From assembly GCA_041662745.1 (NCBI GenBank), contig JBAZRV010000006.1, forward strand, positions 11,215 to 43,214: a DNA stretch of 32,000 bases, read 5' to 3'. This document shows, in pieces, positions 198-27,590 of the stretch (its first letter is position 1; the number at the start of each line of letters is the position of its first letter). Position numbers and translations under genes: made by a program. The notes beneath the pieces are model-generated. The model saw only the letters and a list, made by a program, of their open reading frames with translations. It had not been told where the DNA came from and did no database searches. Origin of the DNA: Patescibacteria group bacterium (lineage in GTDB: Bacteria > Patescibacteriota > Patescibacteriia > 2-01-FULL-39-33).

Positions 198-270
198 GTC
201 ATTCCTGGCTTGACCAGGAATCCAGGTTATCTTGTCATCCCGGAAATTTATAACCAAATTATCCGGGATC
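198..270 (+). repeat. Palindromic hairpin repeat element, two tandem modules
   Basis: GTCATTCC-TGGCTTGACCA-GGAATCCAGGTT (198-228) is 31/31 identical to 26613-26643. A second hairpin follows, GTCATCCCGG..N19..CCGGGATC (234-270). Confidence 0.85.
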
Positions 271-2072: not shown

Positions 2073-2123
2073 AACCTGGATTCCCGCCCTTGCCTGCCGG
2101 CAGGCAAGGTACATGGGAATGAC
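2073..2123 (-). repeat. Palindromic hairpin repeat element, nested variant, inverted orientation
   Basis: AACCTGGATTCCC...GGGAATGAC encloses a perfect 22-bp inner palindrome, CCTTGCCTGCCGGCAGGCAAGG. Confidence 0.8.
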
Positions 2124-14499: not shown

Positions 14500-17334
14500 A
14501 TGACAGCTAAAAAACAAAAACTCCTGATTATTGATTCTAATGCTCTGGTGCATCGCGCTTTCCACGCCCTGCCGCCGACCCTAACCGACGAGAAGGGCCG
14601 GCCGACCAACGCGGTTTACGGCTTCACCTCCATTTTCCTTAAGGCGATAAAAGACATTAAGCCCGACTACATCGCGGCCACTTTTGACCGCAAAGAGAAA
14701 ACCTTCCGCCACGAGCAGTATGAGGCGTACAAGGCCACGCGCGTCAAAGCGCCGGATGAGCTGTATGAACAAATCCCTCTGGTCAAACAAGTGTTAGAAG
14801 CATTTAGCATACCGATTTTTGAACTGGCCGGCTATGAAGCCGATGATTTGATCGGCACTATTGCCAATCTGAAAACCATTGACCGGCCCGATATTGAAAC
14901 TATTATTCTAACCGGCGATCAGGATTGTTTGCAATTGGTAGACTACAACACTAAGGTTTTTTCGCCTCATAAGGGGCTGTCAGAAACAATCCTCTACGGC
15001 GAAGCCGAAGTCAAGGAAAAATTCGGCGGCTTGATGCCCGGTCAACTGATTGATTACAAAGGACTGCGCGGCGACACTTCTGACAACATCCCCGGCGTCC
15101 GGGGTATCGGCGAGAAAGGCGCGATTGATTTGTTGAATAATTTCAAGACCATTGAAGGAATCTACGAGCACATTGATTCTGATTTGATCAAAGACCGCAC
15201 GCGGGAACTGCTTAAGGAACAAAAGAAGCAAGCGCTGATGTCGCGGGAACTGGCGACAATTAAAAAGGATGCGCCCATAAAATTCAAATTGGCCGATTGC
15301 CGTTTCACCGGCTTTGATCAAAACAAAGTCGTTGATTTATTTCAAGAGTTGGGATTTAAACGGCTGATGAACCAAGTGGCCACGCTGGCTAAAAGCGGCC
15401 TGATCGCGCCGACCGGCCAAGGCAGTTTGTTCTCTGCCGCGGTTAGCGATCAAGAAGAAAAAGAATCAACCGCCTTCTCTGTCATTCCCGCGAAGGCGGG
15501 AATCCAGGTTAATAATCATCCTGCCAATAGCCGCTTGGGCAAACAGGACTACCGGCTGGTAACAGCCGGCGACTTGAAAAAATTTTTAGCCGAACTGAAA
15601 AAACAAGAAGAATTTTGCTTTGATACGGAAACAACCGGGCTTAACCCCTTTGCTGACAATTTAATCGGCATCGCTTTCTGCTGGCAAGCCGGCGCAGCCC
15701 GGTATCTGCCGGTTGATTTAGCCGATCAGATTAAGCCGGAACTGTCGAAAATTTTCGACAGTAAAAAAATCAAAAAAATCGGACACAATCTTAAATTCGA
15801 CGCCGAAGTGTTGGAAAAATATTTCGGCCAAGCGATCAACGGGCTGTCTTTTGATACCATGATTGCTTCCTACATCTTGAACCCCGGCCATCGCCAGCAC
15901 AACCTGGACACTTTGGCGTTTATTGAATTCGGTTACCAGATGCAGCCGATCAGCGATTTGATCGGCAACGGCAAAAACCAAATTTCCCTGGCCGAAGCGC
16001 CGCTGGAAAAAGTCAGCTGGTATTCCAGCGAGGACGCTGACTTGACCTTCCGCCTGTATCAGAAGCTTCGGCCGGAGCTGGATAAATCCGCCCTGCTGCC
16101 ACTATTTGAAAAATTGGAAATGCCCTTGGTTGAAGTATTGGTGGCCATGGAGACTAACGGCATCAGAATAAACAGCAAAGCCTTAAAAAACTTAAGCGCC
16201 GTTTTTGCCAAGAGAATCAAAGAGCTGGAAAAAAAAGCCTGGAAAATGGCGGGCGAAGAATTCAATCTGGCCAGCCCCAAGCAGTTAAAGGAAATCTTGT
16301 TTGACAAAATGGGCATCTCCACTGCCGGCATCGGCAAAACCAAAACCGGCTTGTCTACCGCCGCCGGCGAACTGGAAAAGCTTCAGGGTCAACATAAGAT
16401 AATTGACTTAATCATAGAATTCCGCGAACTATCTAAGCTGAAGAACACCTATCTGGACGCCCTGCCGGCTTTGGCTGATTCCTCCGGCCGTGTCCATACC
16501 AGTTACAACCAAACCGTCACCGCCACCGGGCGCCTATCGTCTTCCGAGCCCAACCTGCAGAATATTCCCATTCGCACCGAAACGGGCGGACCCATTCGCA
16601 AGGCGTTTATCGCCGACAAGGGTTTTCAAATTCTTAAAGCCGATTACTCGCAGATTGAATTGCGCATCATCGCATCGCTCGCCAACGACAAGCAAATGCT
16701 GAAGATTTTCCAGTCTGGCGGTGATATTCATACTATGACCGCGGCCATTATTCACAGCATTAAGCCGGAAGAAGTGACTAAGGCTCTGCGCCGCACGGCC
16801 AAAGAAATCAATTTCGGCGTAATCTACGGCATGGGCGCCTGGGGGCTGTCCTCTCGTACCGGTCTATCCAACACGGAAGCGCAGAAATTCATCTACAAAT
16901 ACTTTGAAACCTTTTCCGGCGTCAAGAAATGGCTGGAGGAAACCGTGGAGATCGCCAAAGACAAGGGTTATGTGGAGACCTTTTACGGCCGCAAGCGCTA
17001 CTTGCCGGAAATCAATTCCAGCATTTCCCAGGTTCGTAACAGCGCCGAACGCATGGCCGTCAATATGCCGATTCAAGGAACGGCTGCCGATTTGATCAAG
17101 CTGGCTATGATAGAAATCCACGCCGGCCTGCCCAAAGTATCGGAACGCTCCCGCCTGTTGTTGCAAGTCCACGACGAATTAGTTCTGGAAGTGCCGGAAC
17201 ATGAGGTCCGCAAAGTCGGCAAATACGTCCATGACACCATGTGCTCGGTCATGAAACTGCGCGCGCCCATTGACGCCGACGTTTCCGCCGGCGATAATTG
17301 GGGAGAGACCTCCCCGCTGTCATTCCGGCCGTAG
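14500..17334 (+). CDS. polA: DNA polymerase I (5' nuclease + 3'-5' exonuclease + polymerase)
   Basis: Exo motifs 'FDTETTG', 'HNLKFD' and 'YSSEDAD'. Pol motifs 'DYSQIELRI', 'RRTAKEINFGVIYG' and 'QVHDELV'. Confidence 0.95.
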   Translation: MTAKKQKLLIIDSNALVHRAFHALPPTLTDEKGRPTNAVYGFTSIFLKAIKDIKPDYIAATFDRKEKTFRHEQYEAYKATRVKAPDELYEQIPLVKQVLEAFSIPIFELAGYEADDLIGTIANLKTIDRPDIETIILTGDQDCLQLVDYNTKVFSPHKGLSETILYGEAEVKEKFGGLMPGQLIDYKGLRGDTSDNIPGVRGIGEKGAIDLLNNFKTIEGIYEHIDSDLIKDRTRELLKEQKKQALMSRELATIKKDAPIKFKLADCRFTGFDQNKVVDLFQELGFKRLMNQVATLAKSGLIAPTGQGSLFSAAVSDQEEKESTAFSVIPAKAGIQVNNHPANSRLGKQDYRLVTAGDLKKFLAELKKQEEFCFDTETTGLNPFADNLIGIAFCWQAGAARYLPVDLADQIKPELSKIFDSKKIKKIGHNLKFDAEVLEKYFGQAINGLSFDTMIASYILNPGHRQHNLDTLAFIEFGYQMQPISDLIGNGKNQISLAEAPLEKVSWYSSEDADLTFRLYQKLRPELDKSALLPLFEKLEMPLVEVLVAMETNGIRINSKALKNLSAVFAKRIKELEKKAWKMAGEEFNLASPKQLKEILFDKMGISTAGIGKTKTGLSTAAGELEKLQGQHKIIDLIIEFRELSKLKNTYLDALPALADSSGRVHTSYNQTVTATGRLSSSEPNLQNIPIRTETGGPIRKAFIADKGFQILKADYSQIELRIIASLANDKQMLKIFQSGGDIHTMTAAIIHSIKPEEVTKALRRTAKEINFGVIYGMGAWGLSSRTGLSNTEAQKFIYKYFETFSGVKKWLEETVEIAKDKGYVETFYGRKRYLPEINSSISQVRNSAERMAVNMPIQGTAADLIKLAMIEIHAGLPKVSERSRLLLQVHDELVLEVPEHEVRKVGKYVHDTMCSVMKLRAPIDADVSAGDNWGETSPLSFRP
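15481..15510 (+). repeat. Palindromic hairpin repeat element inserted in frame in polA
   Basis: GTCATTCCCGCGAAGGCGGGAATCCAGGTT is 30 bp and is translated as VIPAKAGIQV within the inter-domain linker. Confidence 0.85.
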
Positions 17335-17410
17335 TATTAACGAAGAGCCGGAATTCAGGTAATAACTTGAGATCCCCTGCCGGCAGGCAGGTTCACTTTG
17401 TTCAGTGATG
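17319..17410 (+). repeat. Composite palindromic elements overlapping the polA 3' end
   Basis: Module 1 is GTCATTCCGGC..GCCGGAATTCAGGT (17319-17361) and contains the polA stop codon. Module 2 is CCCCTGCCGGCAGGCAGG..GTGATGAC, related to the 2073-2123 variant. Confidence 0.75.
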
Positions 17411-24228: not shown

Positions 24229-25320
24229 ATGAAAAAAATCATTCTCGCGCTCATCTGTGGCGCCGGCCTGCTCGCCGTTTCCCAGCCCGCCTGGGCTTAC
24301 GTCGCCAGCGAAGGCAATCTAATCAAAACCGGCAATAACCCGGCCGTCTATTATATTGATGGCGGCGGTTATCGGCATCTTTTCCCCAATCAAGCGGTTT
24401 TCTTCAGTTGGTATAAAGGCTCATGGAGCGACCAGTACATCATTACCGTAACCGATTATGAACTCTTGCAAATCCCGACGGGTAAAAACGTCACGGTCAA
24501 ACCGGGCTATGCCTTGATTCATTTTGACAACAGCTTAAGGATGTACGCCGTCTTGCCCGGCGGAAAGTTATGCCGCGCTCCGGCCCATTACAATAATTAT
24601 CAATACAATCGTTCTCTGATTATTCCGGCCGGCTTTGAAAGCGACTACTATAATGACGGGGCCTGCGATATTACCGAAGGCCAAAAACTGCCTGACGGCA
24701 CGCTCTTAAGGTACGCGGGATCTAATGATGTTTACTATATTCAAAACAGCCAAAAAAGGCACGTGACCGGATCCGGCTTCAACGCTAATAACTTCCGTTG
24801 GGACTCGGTGATTGAGAATGTTGATTCTTCCATGTACTACCCTGATGGCGGGGACATTTCCGCCCGCGAAGACAACATTTACAGCGTCAGCTACAGTTTT
24901 GGCAACAACTATTATAGCGGTTACAATTATAGTTGCAGTGAAAATTGGACTTGTTATGCTTGGAGCGCTTGCGCTAACGGTTCGCAATCCCGCACTTGCT
25001 GGGACAATAACAATTGCGGCACGACTTACAACAAGCCGATTACCGCCCAGGCTTGCTACAGTTGCAGCGAGAGCTGGACCTGCGGTTCTTGGTCGGCCTG
25101 TTCTTACGGCAGGCAATACCGCACTTGCTGGGACAATAACAGCTGCGGCACGACCGCTAATAAGCCGATCACCTCTCAAACTTGCTACAGTTGCAATGAA
25201 AGCTGGAGTTGCACCTCTTGGAGCGTCTGTTCCAAGGGGACAAAATACAGGGAATGCCTGGATATCAACCGTTGCAGCACTGCGACCGGCAAACCGTCCG
25301 TAACGCAATCCTGCAATTAA
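24229..25320 (+). CDS. Secreted protein with N-terminal beta-rich repeats and three C-terminal Cys-rich WxxWSxC (thrombospondin-type-1-like) repeats
   Basis: Signal peptide MKKIILALICGAGLLAVSQPAWA. Three copies of a 43-aa unit, YSC(S/N)E(N/S)W(T/S)CxxWSxCxxGxxxRxCxDxNxC(G/S)T..KPxxxQxC. Confidence 0.8.
   Translation: MKKIILALICGAGLLAVSQPAWAYVASEGNLIKTGNNPAVYYIDGGGYRHLFPNQAVFFSWYKGSWSDQYIITVTDYELLQIPTGKNVTVKPGYALIHFDNSLRMYAVLPGGKLCRAPAHYNNYQYNRSLIIPAGFESDYYNDGACDITEGQKLPDGTLLRYAGSNDVYYIQNSQKRHVTGSGFNANNFRWDSVIENVDSSMYYPDGGDISAREDNIYSVSYSFGNNYYSGYNYSCSENWTCYAWSACANGSQSRTCWDNNNCGTTYNKPITAQACYSCSESWTCGSWSACSYGRQYRTCWDNNSCGTTANKPITSQTCYSCNESWSCTSWSVCSKGTKYRECLDINRCSTATGKPSVTQSCN
24928..25314 (+). 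repeat. 3 x 129-bp in-frame tandem coding repeat
   Basis: Units start at 24928, 25057 and 25186, each 43 codons, with conserved Cys/Trp positions. Confidence 0.9.
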
Positions 25321-25425: not shown

Positions 25426-26514
25426 ATGAAATATCTATTTATTTTGGGCAACAATCCGGAATTATCCGTAGCCGAAATCACGGCTATTCTGCCCCAAGCG
25501 AAAATCCTCAAAAAAACCCAGCTCTACTTAGCGGTTGATAGCCCCAAAATTGATTGCCAACGACTGATGGACCGTTTGGGCGGGACCATCAAAATCGGCC
25601 TGGTATTGGGCGCGCATCCGGATGTTGGACCGATTACCGGTTCAGCCATGTCCAAAAGCGGTGGCCGTTTTAATTTCGGCCTTAGCTTCTATGGCCAAAA
25701 ACCCAGCAACTGGGGCTTAGGCATCAAAAAACAATTGAAAGGGCAAGGCATCAGTTCCCGTTTGGTCACCAGTCGCGAGCCAGCTTTATCGTCGGTTATC
25801 ATCACCAAAGAAAAATGCCAGGATTATATTATCACTCCGGAATTTTTCGCCCAAACTTGCGCCGTACAGGATTTTAAGGAATTCGGCAAACGGGATTTCG
25901 GCCGGCCGGCCGCCGACGCTTATTCGGGCATGCTGCCGCCTAAAGCCGCCAAAATGATGATTAATCTTAGCGGCGCTCAGACGACCGCCACGGTTTTAGA
26001 CCCCTTCTGCGGTTCCGGCACTATCTTATCCGAAGCCCTGGCCCTGGGCTACACTGACTTAATCGGCACCGACTTGTCGGATAAAGCCGTGGCTGACAGC
26101 CAAAAGAATCTCCAATGGCTGGCCGAAGAATTAAAAATCAAAGACTATAAACTGAAAATTGAAAAACTTGACGTTAGGGAACTGTCGAAAAATTTCGACA
26201 GTGTTGACGCCATTATCACTGAGCCGTACCTGGGCAAACCCATCAGAGGCAATGAGAATGCCGAGCAGATAAAATCAATCATCGCCGAGTTATCCGATTT
26301 ATACCTAAGCGCCTTCCGACAATTCAAAAAAGTCTTGGCTGAAAACGGAAAAATCGTCATGATTTTTCCCGAATGGCATTTGCACGGCAAGATCTACCGT
26401 TTAAATATCAGCGAGCGCGTCTCTCAACTCGGCTTTAAGCGCTTAGACAGCGGGGATTTATATTATAAACGCGAAGATCAAAAAGTTTGGCGCAACATCA
26501 CTATCTGGCAATAG
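25426..26514 (+). CDS. Class I SAM-dependent RNA methyltransferase (UPF0020/Trm11-like, probable guanine-N2)
   Basis: Motif I 'VLDPFCGSGTILSEA' and motif IV-like 'IITEPYLGKP', with an N-terminal non-catalytic domain of about 170 aa. The stop codon lies inside the first 23-bp tandem repeat unit. Confidence 0.65.
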   Translation: MKYLFILGNNPELSVAEITAILPQAKILKKTQLYLAVDSPKIDCQRLMDRLGGTIKIGLVLGAHPDVGPITGSAMSKSGGRFNFGLSFYGQKPSNWGLGIKKQLKGQGISSRLVTSREPALSSVIITKEKCQDYIITPEFFAQTCAVQDFKEFGKRDFGRPAADAYSGMLPPKAAKMMINLSGAQTTATVLDPFCGSGTILSEALALGYTDLIGTDLSDKAVADSQKNLQWLAEELKIKDYKLKIEKLDVRELSKNFDSVDAIITEPYLGKPIRGNENAEQIKSIIAELSDLYLSAFRQFKKVLAENGKIVMIFPEWHLHGKIYRLNISERVSQLGFKRLDSGDLYYKREDQKVWRNITIWQ

Positions 26515-26612
26515 TTTACTGTATTATCTATCAATAGTTTACTGTACTATCTATCAATAGTTTACTGTATTATCTATCAATAGTTTACTGTACTATCTGG
26601 CAATAGTTTACT
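26498..26612 (+). repeat. 5 x 23-bp tandem direct repeat
   Basis: Units are (T/G)(C/T)AYTATC-T(A/G)(T/G)CAATAGTTTACT, starting at 26498, 26521, 26544, 26567 and 26590. Unit 1 is the methyltransferase 3' end and unit 5 abuts the hairpin element. Confidence 0.9.
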
Positions 26613-26643
26613 GTCATTCCTGGCTTGACCAGGAATCCAGGTT
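26613..26643 (+). repeat. Palindromic hairpin repeat element (left end of the GIY-YIG cassette)
   Basis: GTCATTCCTGGCTTGACCAGGAATCCAGGTT is identical to 198-228 and ends 6 nt before the GIY-YIG ATG. Confidence 0.9.
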
Positions 26644-26649
26644 AAATTT

Positions 26650-26943
26650 ATGGCTAAGTATTATTATCTTTACATTTTAGCCAGCGAGAGAAACGGTACG
26701 CTATATATCGGCGTAACTAACAATCTTCTTAAAAGAGTTTGGGAACATAAAAACAAATTTGTTCAGGGATTTACTAACAAATATACAGTTGATAAATTAG
26801 TATATTACGAGATCTTTGAAGATATAAATGAAGCGATACTAAGAGAAACGCAAATGAAAAGATGGAAAAGAGAATGGAAAATAGAATTAATAGAAAAAGA
26901 TAATACGGAATGGATTGATTTATACGAAGAAATGTCAAAATAA
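26650..26943 (+). CDS. GIY-YIG nuclease family protein (small URI-domain, COG2827/YhbQ-like)
   Basis: 'YYLYILASERNGTLYIGVTNNLLKRVWEHK' (GIY..YIG..R..H/E) and 'EAILRETQMKRWKREWKIELIE'. Confidence 0.9.
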   Translation: MAKYYYLYILASERNGTLYIGVTNNLLKRVWEHKNKFVQGFTNKYTVDKLVYYEIFEDINEAILRETQMKRWKREWKIELIEKDNTEWIDLYEEMSK

Positions 26944-26960
26944 AAATAAATCTAATTATT

Positions 26961-26990
26961 AACCTGGATTCCTGCTTTCGCAGGAATGAC
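26961..26990 (-). repeat. Palindromic hairpin repeat element (right end, inverted orientation)
   Basis: AACCTGGATTCC-TGCTTTCGCA-GGAATGAC. Confidence 0.9.
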
Positions 26991-27086
26991 AAAAGGAGGG
27001 TAGGAATGACAAAAGGAGGGTAGGAATGACAAAAGGAGGACAGGAATGACAAAAGGAGGGTAGGAATGACAAGGGGGTGCGGGAAT
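26981..27086 (+). repeat. About 5 x 20-bp tandem direct repeat
   Basis: (C/T)AGGAATGACAAAAGGAGG(G/A) at 26981, 27001, 27021 and 27041, with a degenerate copy at 27061. The first unit is the outer arm of the hairpin element. Confidence 0.9.
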
Positions 27087-27110
27087 AAAAAATATACAAT
27101 AGAATAAATA

Positions 27111-27590
27111 ATGATTACCGTATTCAATAAACTTAATTATTTGCGCAGCAACAGAATCACGCAGGTGAAGCTGCCGATTTCCGCCGTGGCTCAGGAGCTG
27201 TCCGCGGCGCTTTTGATTGCCGCTGATTGTAATAAACGCCAAGAGTTAGGCGAATTACTGCTGGATGAACTCTGCGACTTGGCGCAAATAACTATTGTCA
27301 GCTTAACGGTCAACGACAGCAATCAGCAGCACCGTCGCCGCAACGGGCGCATCATCATGAAACGTTTCGGCTTGTACAAAGTGCGGGAAAAAATCATCCG
27401 CATTGAAAACCGTACGGCGGCGCGCGGGCAAATAATCTCTCCTAAAAGTTTCTTGGATACTTTGTTGCATGAGTGGTTGCACCACTATGATTTCCAGAAA
27501 CTGAAACTTAATTCCATCCACTCCAGAGGTTTTTACAACCGCTTTAATGACTTAAAAGAAAAACTGCAGATACCAAAAATGAGCCGATAA
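27111..27590 (+). CDS. Putative zinc metallopeptidase-fold protein (HExxH; SprT/YgjP-DUF45-like)
   Basis: 'DTLLHEWLHHYDF..NSIHSRGFYNRF' fits the HExxH..H..F pattern of SprT/YgjP-like proteins. The rest is not recognised. Confidence 0.55.
   Translation: MITVFNKLNYLRSNRITQVKLPISAVAQELSAALLIAADCNKRQELGELLLDELCDLAQITIVSLTVNDSNQQHRRRNGRIIMKRFGLYKVREKIIRIENRTAARGQIISPKSFLDTLLHEWLHHYDFQKLKLNSIHSRGFYNRFNDLKEKLQIPKMSR

Follow-up and report, generated by a model that had tools for sequence, protein, structure and literature searches.

A probable SRM–ssn–SRM cassette in a Patescibacteria genome and one-sided half-hairpin arrays beside Ssn-related motifs

Introduction

What kind of element is formed by a small GIY-YIG nuclease gene that lies between two inverted hairpins, each bordered on its outer side by a tandem array? 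This arrangement is found in a 32-kb stretch of DNA (32,000 nucleotides, referred to here as the window) from a Patescibacteria (Buchananbacteria-like) metagenome-assembled genome (MAG). The locus is very probably a Patescibacteria copy of the Ssn system, in the form of an SRM–ssn–SRM cassette, in which ssn is the nuclease gene and SRM, the Ssn-related motif, is its cognate hairpin. An initial annotation of the window had reported a 97-aa GIY-YIG open reading frame (ORF) between inverted hairpins, which was confirmed by a match to Pfam family PF01541 (E = 3e-15) and by hairpins at 26612–26645 and 26959–26991.

Chenal et al. (2025, Nat Commun 16:2388, PMC11893778) described the Ssn family as single-domain GIY-YIG proteins of ~94 aa, classified as cd10448 (GIY-YIG_unchar_3). 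The four characterised homologues bind their cognate hairpin (NTS/SRM) solely as single-stranded DNA (ssDNA) and their cut falls on the same strand, slightly (a few nucleotides) to the 5′ side of its GTC head. The GTC is required for cleavage, and a C past the palindrome is required for binding. SsnA is inactive on double-stranded DNA (dsDNA) and on RNA, and the residues Tyr6, Tyr17 and Glu64 were mutated as its catalytic residues. In Neisseria, the NTS/SRM hairpin repeat is CGTCATTCCCGCGMAVGCGGGAATCYRG. At least one SRM accompanies 71% of the published Ssn homologues and 42% are flanked on two sides. The same authors compared Ssn/SRM with IS200/IS605 and REP (PMC11893778).

It had been proposed from the window alone that the nuclease and its palindromic repeats form a system with a logic like that of REP/RAYT, built around a GIY-YIG enzyme. 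This proposal corresponds to the Ssn/SRM system of PMC11893778. That system was already published in 2025. The window adds to it a new member, whose host group is new and whose hairpin is a variant, but the kind of system is a known one.

A nuclease of the Ssn family between outward-facing hairpins

By its sequence, the 97-aa protein encoded at 26650–26943 is assigned to the Ssn family of GIY-YIG enzymes. The GIY-YIG domain spans residues 4–77 and no other Pfam domain was found; in particular, the flanked gene matched none of the Y1 transposase families in Pfam. A tblastn search of a plasmid collection retrieved N. gonorrhoeae (E = 8e-25, coverage 94%), and BLASTP aligned the protein without gaps to the 94-aa gonococcal SsnA orthologue, with 43 of 86 residues identical (50%; E = 3e-35). 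This comparison sequence was the N. gonorrhoeae orthologue at 416–700 of locus L095, not N. meningitidis CAX49033.1. Locus L095 is NZ_CP119140.1 (2.17 Mb), gonococcal chromosomes being filed as plasmids in that collection. The gonococcal orthologue has Tyr6, Tyr17 and Glu64 as published for SsnA. Residues Tyr8, Tyr19 and Glu66 of the window protein align with them at the same spacing and are invariant in 25 homologues.

An identical protein figures in the annotation of a Patescibacteria MAG, and homologues with 55–73% identity number in the thousands and come from very different phyla. The NCBIfam search returned a sub-threshold match only, to the group I intron endonuclease model TIGR01453 (17.8 bits against a cutoff of 56). 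No relative was found by sequence search of the PDB, and the nuclease had no match in the phage collection. Chenal et al. admitted proteins to the family by BLAST to SsnA (E<1e-10, coverage of at least 75%) and looked for SRMs within 500 bp on each side. The window has a single-domain GIY-YIG protein under 150 aa, homology to SsnA, and SRM hairpins on both sides of the gene. By analogy with its characterised relatives, the protein would cut ssDNA 5′ of its SRMs.

The flanking hairpins are cognate SRMs, also known as CGTC-tagged REPs or dRS3/NTS. Each consists of a T/C-GTC head, an 8-bp stem that starts with AT, a loop of 4–5 nt and a C-CAG tail, in agreement with the NTS/SRM and CGTC-REP definitions. 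The left SRM reads TGTCATTCCTGG-CTTGA-CCAGGAATCCAGGTTAA and ends 4 nt ahead of the ssn ATG, while the inverted right SRM reads TTAACCTGGATTCCTGC-TTTC-GCAGGAATGACA and starts 15 nt past the ssn stop codon. As ssDNA they fold with −8.8 kcal/mol (left, z = −4.0) and −7.8 kcal/mol (right, z about −4). A search of the hairpin region against Rfam gave no match. The two SRMs form a head-to-head pair, with heads outward and tails inward, so that the predicted cut sites lie outside the cassette, on opposite strands and inside both arrays.

The left and right SRMs are perfectly complementary over their outermost 11 nt and their innermost 16 nt, and the differences are confined to the loops and the last stem pair. 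When the left and right SRMs of other cassettes were compared beyond the CCAG tail, the arm was common to 15 of 39 pairs and the loop to 9 of 39; the perfect inner repeat of 16 nt is therefore unusual and follows no rule of the family. A strain with 96% identity (L002, 480–500 and 815–830) carries a matched tail substitution, with CCAGATTAA on the left and TTAATCTGG on the right in place of CCAGGTTAA and TTAACCTGG. This paired change keeps the two tails complementary, which suggests gene conversion or selection for pairing across the gene.

The same layout recurs across phyla. In a census of 80 homologous loci, taken from contigs of one genome per species, 79 homologues had both flanks present. 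SRMs were recognised strictly by structure, as GTCAT followed by an uninterrupted stem of 7 bp or more and then by C; this detector reported 293 in 1.21 Mb and 1 in shuffled sequence. An SRM(+) lies within 100 nt upstream of ssn in 46 of the 79 homologues, mostly 5–20 nt ahead of the ATG, and an SRM(−) lies within 150 nt downstream in 52. Both sides are occupied in 38 (48%) and neither side in 19. Roughly half of the SRMs fall within 150 nt of ssn, a local enrichment of about 50-fold. The census agrees with the published association, and the SRM(+)–ssn–SRM(−) layout of the window is therefore the norm of the family.

Tandem arrays on the head side of the hairpins

The tandem arrays that had been reported outside both hairpins were recovered by Tandem Repeats Finder, on the left at 26500–26614 (period 23, 5.0 copies, 91% matches) and on the right at 26982–27072 (period 20, 4.6 copies, 94% matches). 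Each lies directly against a hairpin, on its outer side, and, a 129-nt coding repeat excepted, the two are by far the top-scoring tandem arrays of the window.

The right array is made of hairpin sequence. Its units have GTC and 6–7 nt of the 5′ arm in common with the SRM (GTCATTCCT is GTC plus 6 nt). The window contains 10 occurrences of the motif GGAATGAC, where 0.93 would be expected, and 5 of them fall in this array. The left array is a duplication of native flank. Its unit consists of the 15 nt with which the methyltransferase gene ends, including the TAG, followed by the 8 nt TTTACTGT; the first unit had rightly been read as the 3′ end of that gene with its stop codon.

The initial annotation had described the unit on both sides as a copy of the outer arm of the hairpin plus its flank. 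That description holds on the right, where the arm copy (GGAATGAC) is exact. It is poorly supported on the left, where GTAYTATC agrees with GTCATTCC at 4 of 8 positions, close to chance (binomial P ~0.11 for 4 or more of 8). The resemblance claimed between the native sequence and the arm plus loop start is likewise poorly supported: TCACTATCTGGC and GTCATTCCTGGC agree at 6 of 12 positions, mostly through a CTGGC that is found in units 1 and 5 only. The two arrays therefore mirror each other in position, whereas in composition the mirror holds on the right only.

Copy number differs between assemblies, and copy-number heterogeneity was among the things that the initial annotation had proposed to look for. 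The window has 5 left units and 5 copies of GGAATGAC. In locus L001, whose protein is identical, there are 3 left units, and GGAATGAC is present twice, as the SRM's own outer arm and as one extra half-site. The L002 strain also has 3 and 2, and L003 has 3 left units. L002 has its own homogenised variant of the left unit: its units 2 and 3 share one sequence, which departs from that of unit 1 at 5 positions. The arrays can be described as tandem duplications of unstable copy number, each placed on the GTC (cleavage) side of its SRM.

Each 20-nt unit of the right array at 26983–27062 also reads as a Shine–Dalgarno sequence with a 5-codon mini-ORF (AAAGGAGGgtaggaATGACAAAAGGAGGGTAG, MTKGG*). This mini-ORF is not common to the spacers of other loci and is therefore probably coincidental.

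Half-hairpin arrays as a widespread, one-sided pattern

The right array is a typical array of 5′ half-SRMs with ~11-nt spacers, a pattern observed at ~10% of SRMs in many phyla. Half-sites were counted as copies of an SRM's own 9-mer (GTC plus 6 nt) with at most 1 mismatch, positions inside any SRM being excluded. Within 120 nt upstream of SRMs, 80 half-sites were found in direct orientation, compared with 17, 22 and 32 in three control configurations. Their spacing peaks at 16–23 nt, too short for a full hairpin.

The pattern is also one-sided. In a mirror-controlled test of 502 SRMs on 207 sequences, copies of the 5′ arm lay 14–30 nt upstream of 49 SRMs at 25 loci; in the mirror configuration, copies of the 3′ arm lay 14–30 nt downstream of 4 SRMs at 4 loci (p = 1e-4 by loci). 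Cleavage by the published Ssn homologues falls on this same, upstream side.

Array units consist of 8–14 nt in common with the SRM (GTC plus 5–11 nt) and a spacer of 8–15 nt that often ends in a T-run. Examples are provided by loci L022, L036, L063, L068, L111 and L138, and a half-NTS array (GGGAATGACGAAGAGTTGC/GGGAATGATGGAAAGCTAT/..) lies beside the ssnA orthologue of N. gonorrhoeae. This gononococcal array, at 296–350 of locus L095, has a period of 19 nt (GGGAATGAC.., GGGAATGAT.., GGGGATAAC..) and is placed upstream of ssnA, outside an inverted NTS.

Among 18 units, drawn from only 7 loci with clean arrays (the window, L022, L027, L063, L068, L074 and L080), 14 are as long as the hairpin beside them (2 × stem + loop), with a deviation of 0 to +1 nt. 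Tandem arrays of half-SRMs are mentioned neither by Chenal et al. (2025), whose paper does not contain the word 'tandem', nor by Di Nocera et al. (2013). The widespread, one-sided half-hairpin pattern thus appears to be undescribed.

Insertion between two host genes

Orthologous junctions were located through homologues of the downstream 159-aa protein, and the identities below are those of this protein to the window copy. In the relatives with an overlapping or empty junction the 596-bp block is missing, which identifies window positions 26515–27110 as an insertion. It comprises the rest of the left array, an SRM, ssn, a second SRM, the right array and an AT-rich tail. The initial annotation had proposed a search of relatives for an empty site. 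Such sites were found, but they lack the whole 596 nt and do not show the predicted joint between ..TTTACT and AAAAGGAGG...

The junction takes several states. The SRM–ssn–SRM cassette is present in the window and in L001–L003 (100% identity for L001). In the closest relative, on the 958-kb contig L084 (81%), the junction is empty and the two genes overlap (..TCTGGCAATGATAAAAATG..); it is also empty in L086/L087 (62%). An SRM(+)/SRM(−) dimer with no gene occupies it in L088/L089 (63%), and a solo SRM in L093/L094 (63%). It holds an unrelated AT-rich spacer in L090–L092 (60%) and another GIY-YIG gene in the P0128 contig (62%). In every occupied allele that was compared at the DNA level, the SRM head lies 2–7 nt past the methyltransferase stop codon.

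One junction that is empty, solo, dimeric or filled by a cassette in different relatives indicates that SRMs and ssn cassettes are gained and lost in the manner of REP/REPIN-type elements. Recurrent insertion would be the more parsimonious account, as compared with precise losses on several occasions. The hexamer CAATAG stands at both edges of the insert (26509–26514 and about 27097–27102), a weak hint of a possible 6-bp target duplication.

Other hairpin copies in the window and beyond

The hairpins also occur away from the nuclease gene. The window holds at least 7 SRM copies, of which at least 5 are additional and have no ssn beside them; one of these lies in frame in polA (Table 1). In-frame intragenic copies of CGTC-REPs are known, and DNA polymerase I is among their recurrent targets (Di Nocera et al. 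2013, PMC3733652). The in-frame copy at 15480–15510 sits in the linker of DNA polymerase I, where it adds the residues ..VIPAKAGIQV.., and the copy at 17319–17362 supplies the last residues of the protein, ..SPLSFRP*. The in-frame copy fits the dRS3 pattern ATTCCC-N8-GGGAAT exactly (ATTCCC GCGAAGGC GGGAAT), whereas the ssn-flanking SRMs (ATTCCT..AGGAAT) differ from it.

Table 1. Coordinates of the features of the window
Feature	Position	Strand	Description
Solo SRM	198..229	+	Identical to the left ssn-flanking SRM; no ssn nearby
Related-family hairpin	234-270		GTCATCCCGGA..TCCGGGATC; after the solo SRM at 198-229
SRM-like element	2078..2123	-	Long nested loop; minus strand GTCATTCCC..GGGAATCCAGGTT; direct sequence reading
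Canonical SRM	15480..15510	+	TGTCATTCCCGCGAAGGCGGGAATCCAGGTTAA; in frame in the DNA polymerase I gene (..SVIPAKAGIQVNN..); fold -10.2 kcal/mol
SRM variant	17319..17362	+	GTCATTCCGGCC..GGCCGGAATTCAGGTAA; overlaps the polA stop codon
Methyltransferase gene	25426..26514	+	UPF0020/RMKL-like RNA methyltransferase; 3′ end is the insertion site
Left tandem array	26500..26614	+	Five 23-bp units, ACTATCTGGCAATAGTTTACTGT or variants of it, the first being the methyltransferase 3′ end with TAG stop
Inserted block	26515..27110		596 bp; methyltransferase stop to start of next gene; missing in relatives
Left SRM	26612..26645	+	T-GTC head, 8-bp stem ATTCCTGG/CCAGGAAT, loop CTTGA, tail CCAGGTTAA
ssn gene	26650..26943	+	97-aa single-domain GIY-YIG protein, Ssn family by sequence; predicted site-specific ssDNA endonuclease
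Right SRM, inverted	26959..26991	-	Minus strand: T-GTC, stem ATTCCTGC/GCAGGAAT, loop GAAA, tail CCAGGTTAA
Right 5′-half-SRM array	26982..27088	-	Minus strand: (GTCATTCCT + ACCCTCCTTTT) x4, a diverged unit and a degenerate TTATTCC remnant
159-aa protein gene	27111..27590	+	Conserved, without family match; overlaps (ATGA) or abuts the methyltransferase gene in empty-site relatives

Beyond the window, the metagenome contigs that carry the exact 26-nt sequence of the left SRM number more than 120. Of 82 copies examined, more than 40 lie at the centre of a ~150-nt composite that resembles a miniature inverted-repeat transposable element (L096–L175, for example L117 1795–1925, L134 and L140), in which an outer imperfect inverted repeat (..GTCCATAATTGTATAGACA.. 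/ ..TGTCTTGTCAATTATGGA..) surrounds two SRMs placed head to head. An ssn gene adjoins only 2 of the 82. The 129-nt coding repeat mentioned above (24984–25248, ~2 copies, 76–80% identical) lies in the Cys-rich C-terminal part of a secreted-looking protein of 363 aa (24229–25320) that has no Pfam match.

Origin of the arrays and competing explanations

In the proposed sequence of events, the 596-bp block was inserted at the 3′ end of the methyltransferase gene, and the Ssn nuclease would recognise the flanking SRMs as ssDNA and cut shortly before the GTC head, on its 5′ side. Where the hairpin is extruded, a break or stall on its cleavage side, followed by misaligned resynthesis, may then seed an array, and ordinary slippage would expand and contract its copies. 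Seeding by cleavage-side misrepair with upkeep by slippage is put forward tentatively, as a possibility that falls short of even odds. The position of the arrays on the cleavage side would agree with the earlier suggestion that they could be scars left by repeated cleavage and repair.

Several observations weigh against this account of the locus. The left array has no real copy of the arm. Arrays are not enriched near ssn (9% of near SRMs compared with 12% of far ones; Fisher p = 0.39), and this similar frequency gives no sign of a cis-preferential action. A nick at −5 followed by displacement synthesis predicts units of 13–18 nt, compared with the 20–23 nt observed, in which spacers take up 8–15 nt. 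The junction states may also fit one old insertion with later losses. Finally, the ssn-flanking SRMs miss the published degenerate search motif, HGTCWYN(0-2)YYVSBRHN(0-5)WNVSBRGN(0-2)RNCYNB, whose single match in the window is the SRM inside polA (15480–15507). They carry a T at the V position and a compensating A on the other arm. As a single compensated stem change accounts for this failure, it reflects a limit of the search string and not the anatomy of the hairpins.

A specific route was considered and set aside, in which a nick at −5 (the Neisseria position) is followed by strand displacement and by ligation of a hairpin-protected flap. It would explain the sidedness of the arrays, yet its units are too short, and it is kept as a loose idea only.

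The strongest competitor is ordinary minisatellite slippage, in which the stable hairpin stalls replication and promotes local duplication with no part for the nuclease. Copy number shifts by whole units between assemblies, as in a variable-number tandem repeat, and slippage would also accommodate the lack of enrichment near ssn, the native flank in the left array and a unit length that misfits simple nicking plus displacement. However, symmetrical stalling should duplicate either arm, and the observed ratio is 49 to 4 SRMs (25 to 4 loci). The favoured side is moreover the cut side of Ssn homologues, a sidedness that plain slippage leaves unexplained. Slippage alone is rated about as likely as seeding by cleavage-side misrepair, likewise short of even odds.

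The hairpins might instead be transcription terminators or RNA regulatory stem-loops whose nearness to the GIY-YIG gene is incidental. SRMs are intergenic or lie at gene ends, such as the polA stop codon, and CGTC-REPs have been proposed as RNA elements (PMC3733652). Against this, a promoter and terminator scan found no terminator-like sites, no T-run follows the stems, Rfam was without a match and one SRM is translated inside polA. The oriented hairpin–gene–hairpin layout is also conserved across phyla with its ~50-fold local enrichment, and SsnA is inactive on RNA (PMC11893778). A purely RNA-level role is therefore highly improbable.

Even less credible is a free-standing homing endonuclease that cuts dsDNA at the methyltransferase/159-aa junction, with the repeats and arrays as by-products. 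The occupied junction in several relatives, the CAATAG at both insert edges and the sub-threshold intron endonuclease match speak for it; against it stand a protein of just 97 aa without a DNA-binding domain, 50% identity to an orthologue of SsnA, which is inactive on dsDNA, hairpins dispersed without the gene, solo and dimeric SRMs at the junction without a nuclease gene, and the lack of phage matches. Nor are the arrays or their copy numbers at all likely to be assembly artefacts: the sequences are all taken from short-read metagenome assemblies, which differ in their copy numbers, but four independent assemblies carry the arrays with consistent unit sequences, the arrays (69–115 nt) are below the k-mer size or read length, L002 has its own unit variant, and comparable arrays occur at 25 unrelated loci, including one in a finished N. 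gonorrhoeae genome.

Relation to known systems

The SRM–ssn–SRM cassette of the window resembles the Ssn/NTS system of Neisseria meningitidis in its single-domain GIY-YIG protein of ~95 aa, the spacing of the catalytic residues, the oriented hairpins on both sides and the dispersed extra copies. It differs from the systems described by Chenal et al. in its host, a Patescibacteria MAG from a group that is not named in PMC11893778, and in the stem of its cognate SRM (ATTCCTGG/ATTCCTGC), which lies outside the published search motif. One-sided tandem arrays of half-SRMs are absent from that description, and the series of empty, solo, dimer and cassette junctions in this lineage has no counterpart there.

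The CGTC-tagged REPs of Di Nocera et al. (2013, BMC Genomics 14:522, PMC3733652), which include Neisseria dRS3 and Rickettsia RPE-4/RPE-6, have the same C/TGTC tag, 8–9-bp stem starting with AT, 4–5-nt loop and CCA tail (CCAGG in the window). Like the window SRMs, they are multi-copy and occur as head-to-head dimers and as in-frame intragenic copies. No associated enzyme was reported for them, whereas here the hairpins bracket ssn; the five phyla covered by that study do not include Patescibacteria.

The REP/REPIN–RAYT systems follow the same logic, in which a single-copy nuclease gene lies between inverted copies of a dispersed short hairpin that is recognised as ssDNA. RAYT is an IS200/IS605-type Y1 HUH enzyme, whereas GIY-YIG has an unrelated fold and chemistry, and the tag is GTC rather than GTAG. 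GIY-YIG hydrolysis forms no covalent tyrosine intermediate, and strand transfer is therefore not expected; mobilisation of SRMs by Ssn is only putative. The GIY-YIG homing endonucleases of the I-TevI type share the catalytic domain and a gene inserted between host genes, but the window protein has no DNA-binding domain and no intron or phage context, and its characterised relatives act on ssDNA only.

Implications

The window extends the Ssn/SRM system to a Patescibacteria genome with a hairpin that the published motif misses, and for this reason the published count of two-sided flanking (42%) is probably an underestimate. The half-SRM arrays and the junction states are the parts most worth following up. 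The junction series bears on a question left open by the Ssn authors, namely whether NTS–ssnA–NTS is a mobile element. With half-hairpins on the Ssn cut side only at ~10% of SRMs, the arrays offer a testable handle on the action of the nuclease on the chromosome in vivo. It is conceivable, though still doubtful, that the half-SRM arrays, with their 16–23-nt units, are in vivo footprints of Ssn acting on chromosomal hairpins, which would make them a new duplication signature specific to the cleavage side, and that, taken together with the junction states, they mark SRMs and their cassettes as actively mobile or recombinogenic in Patescibacteria.

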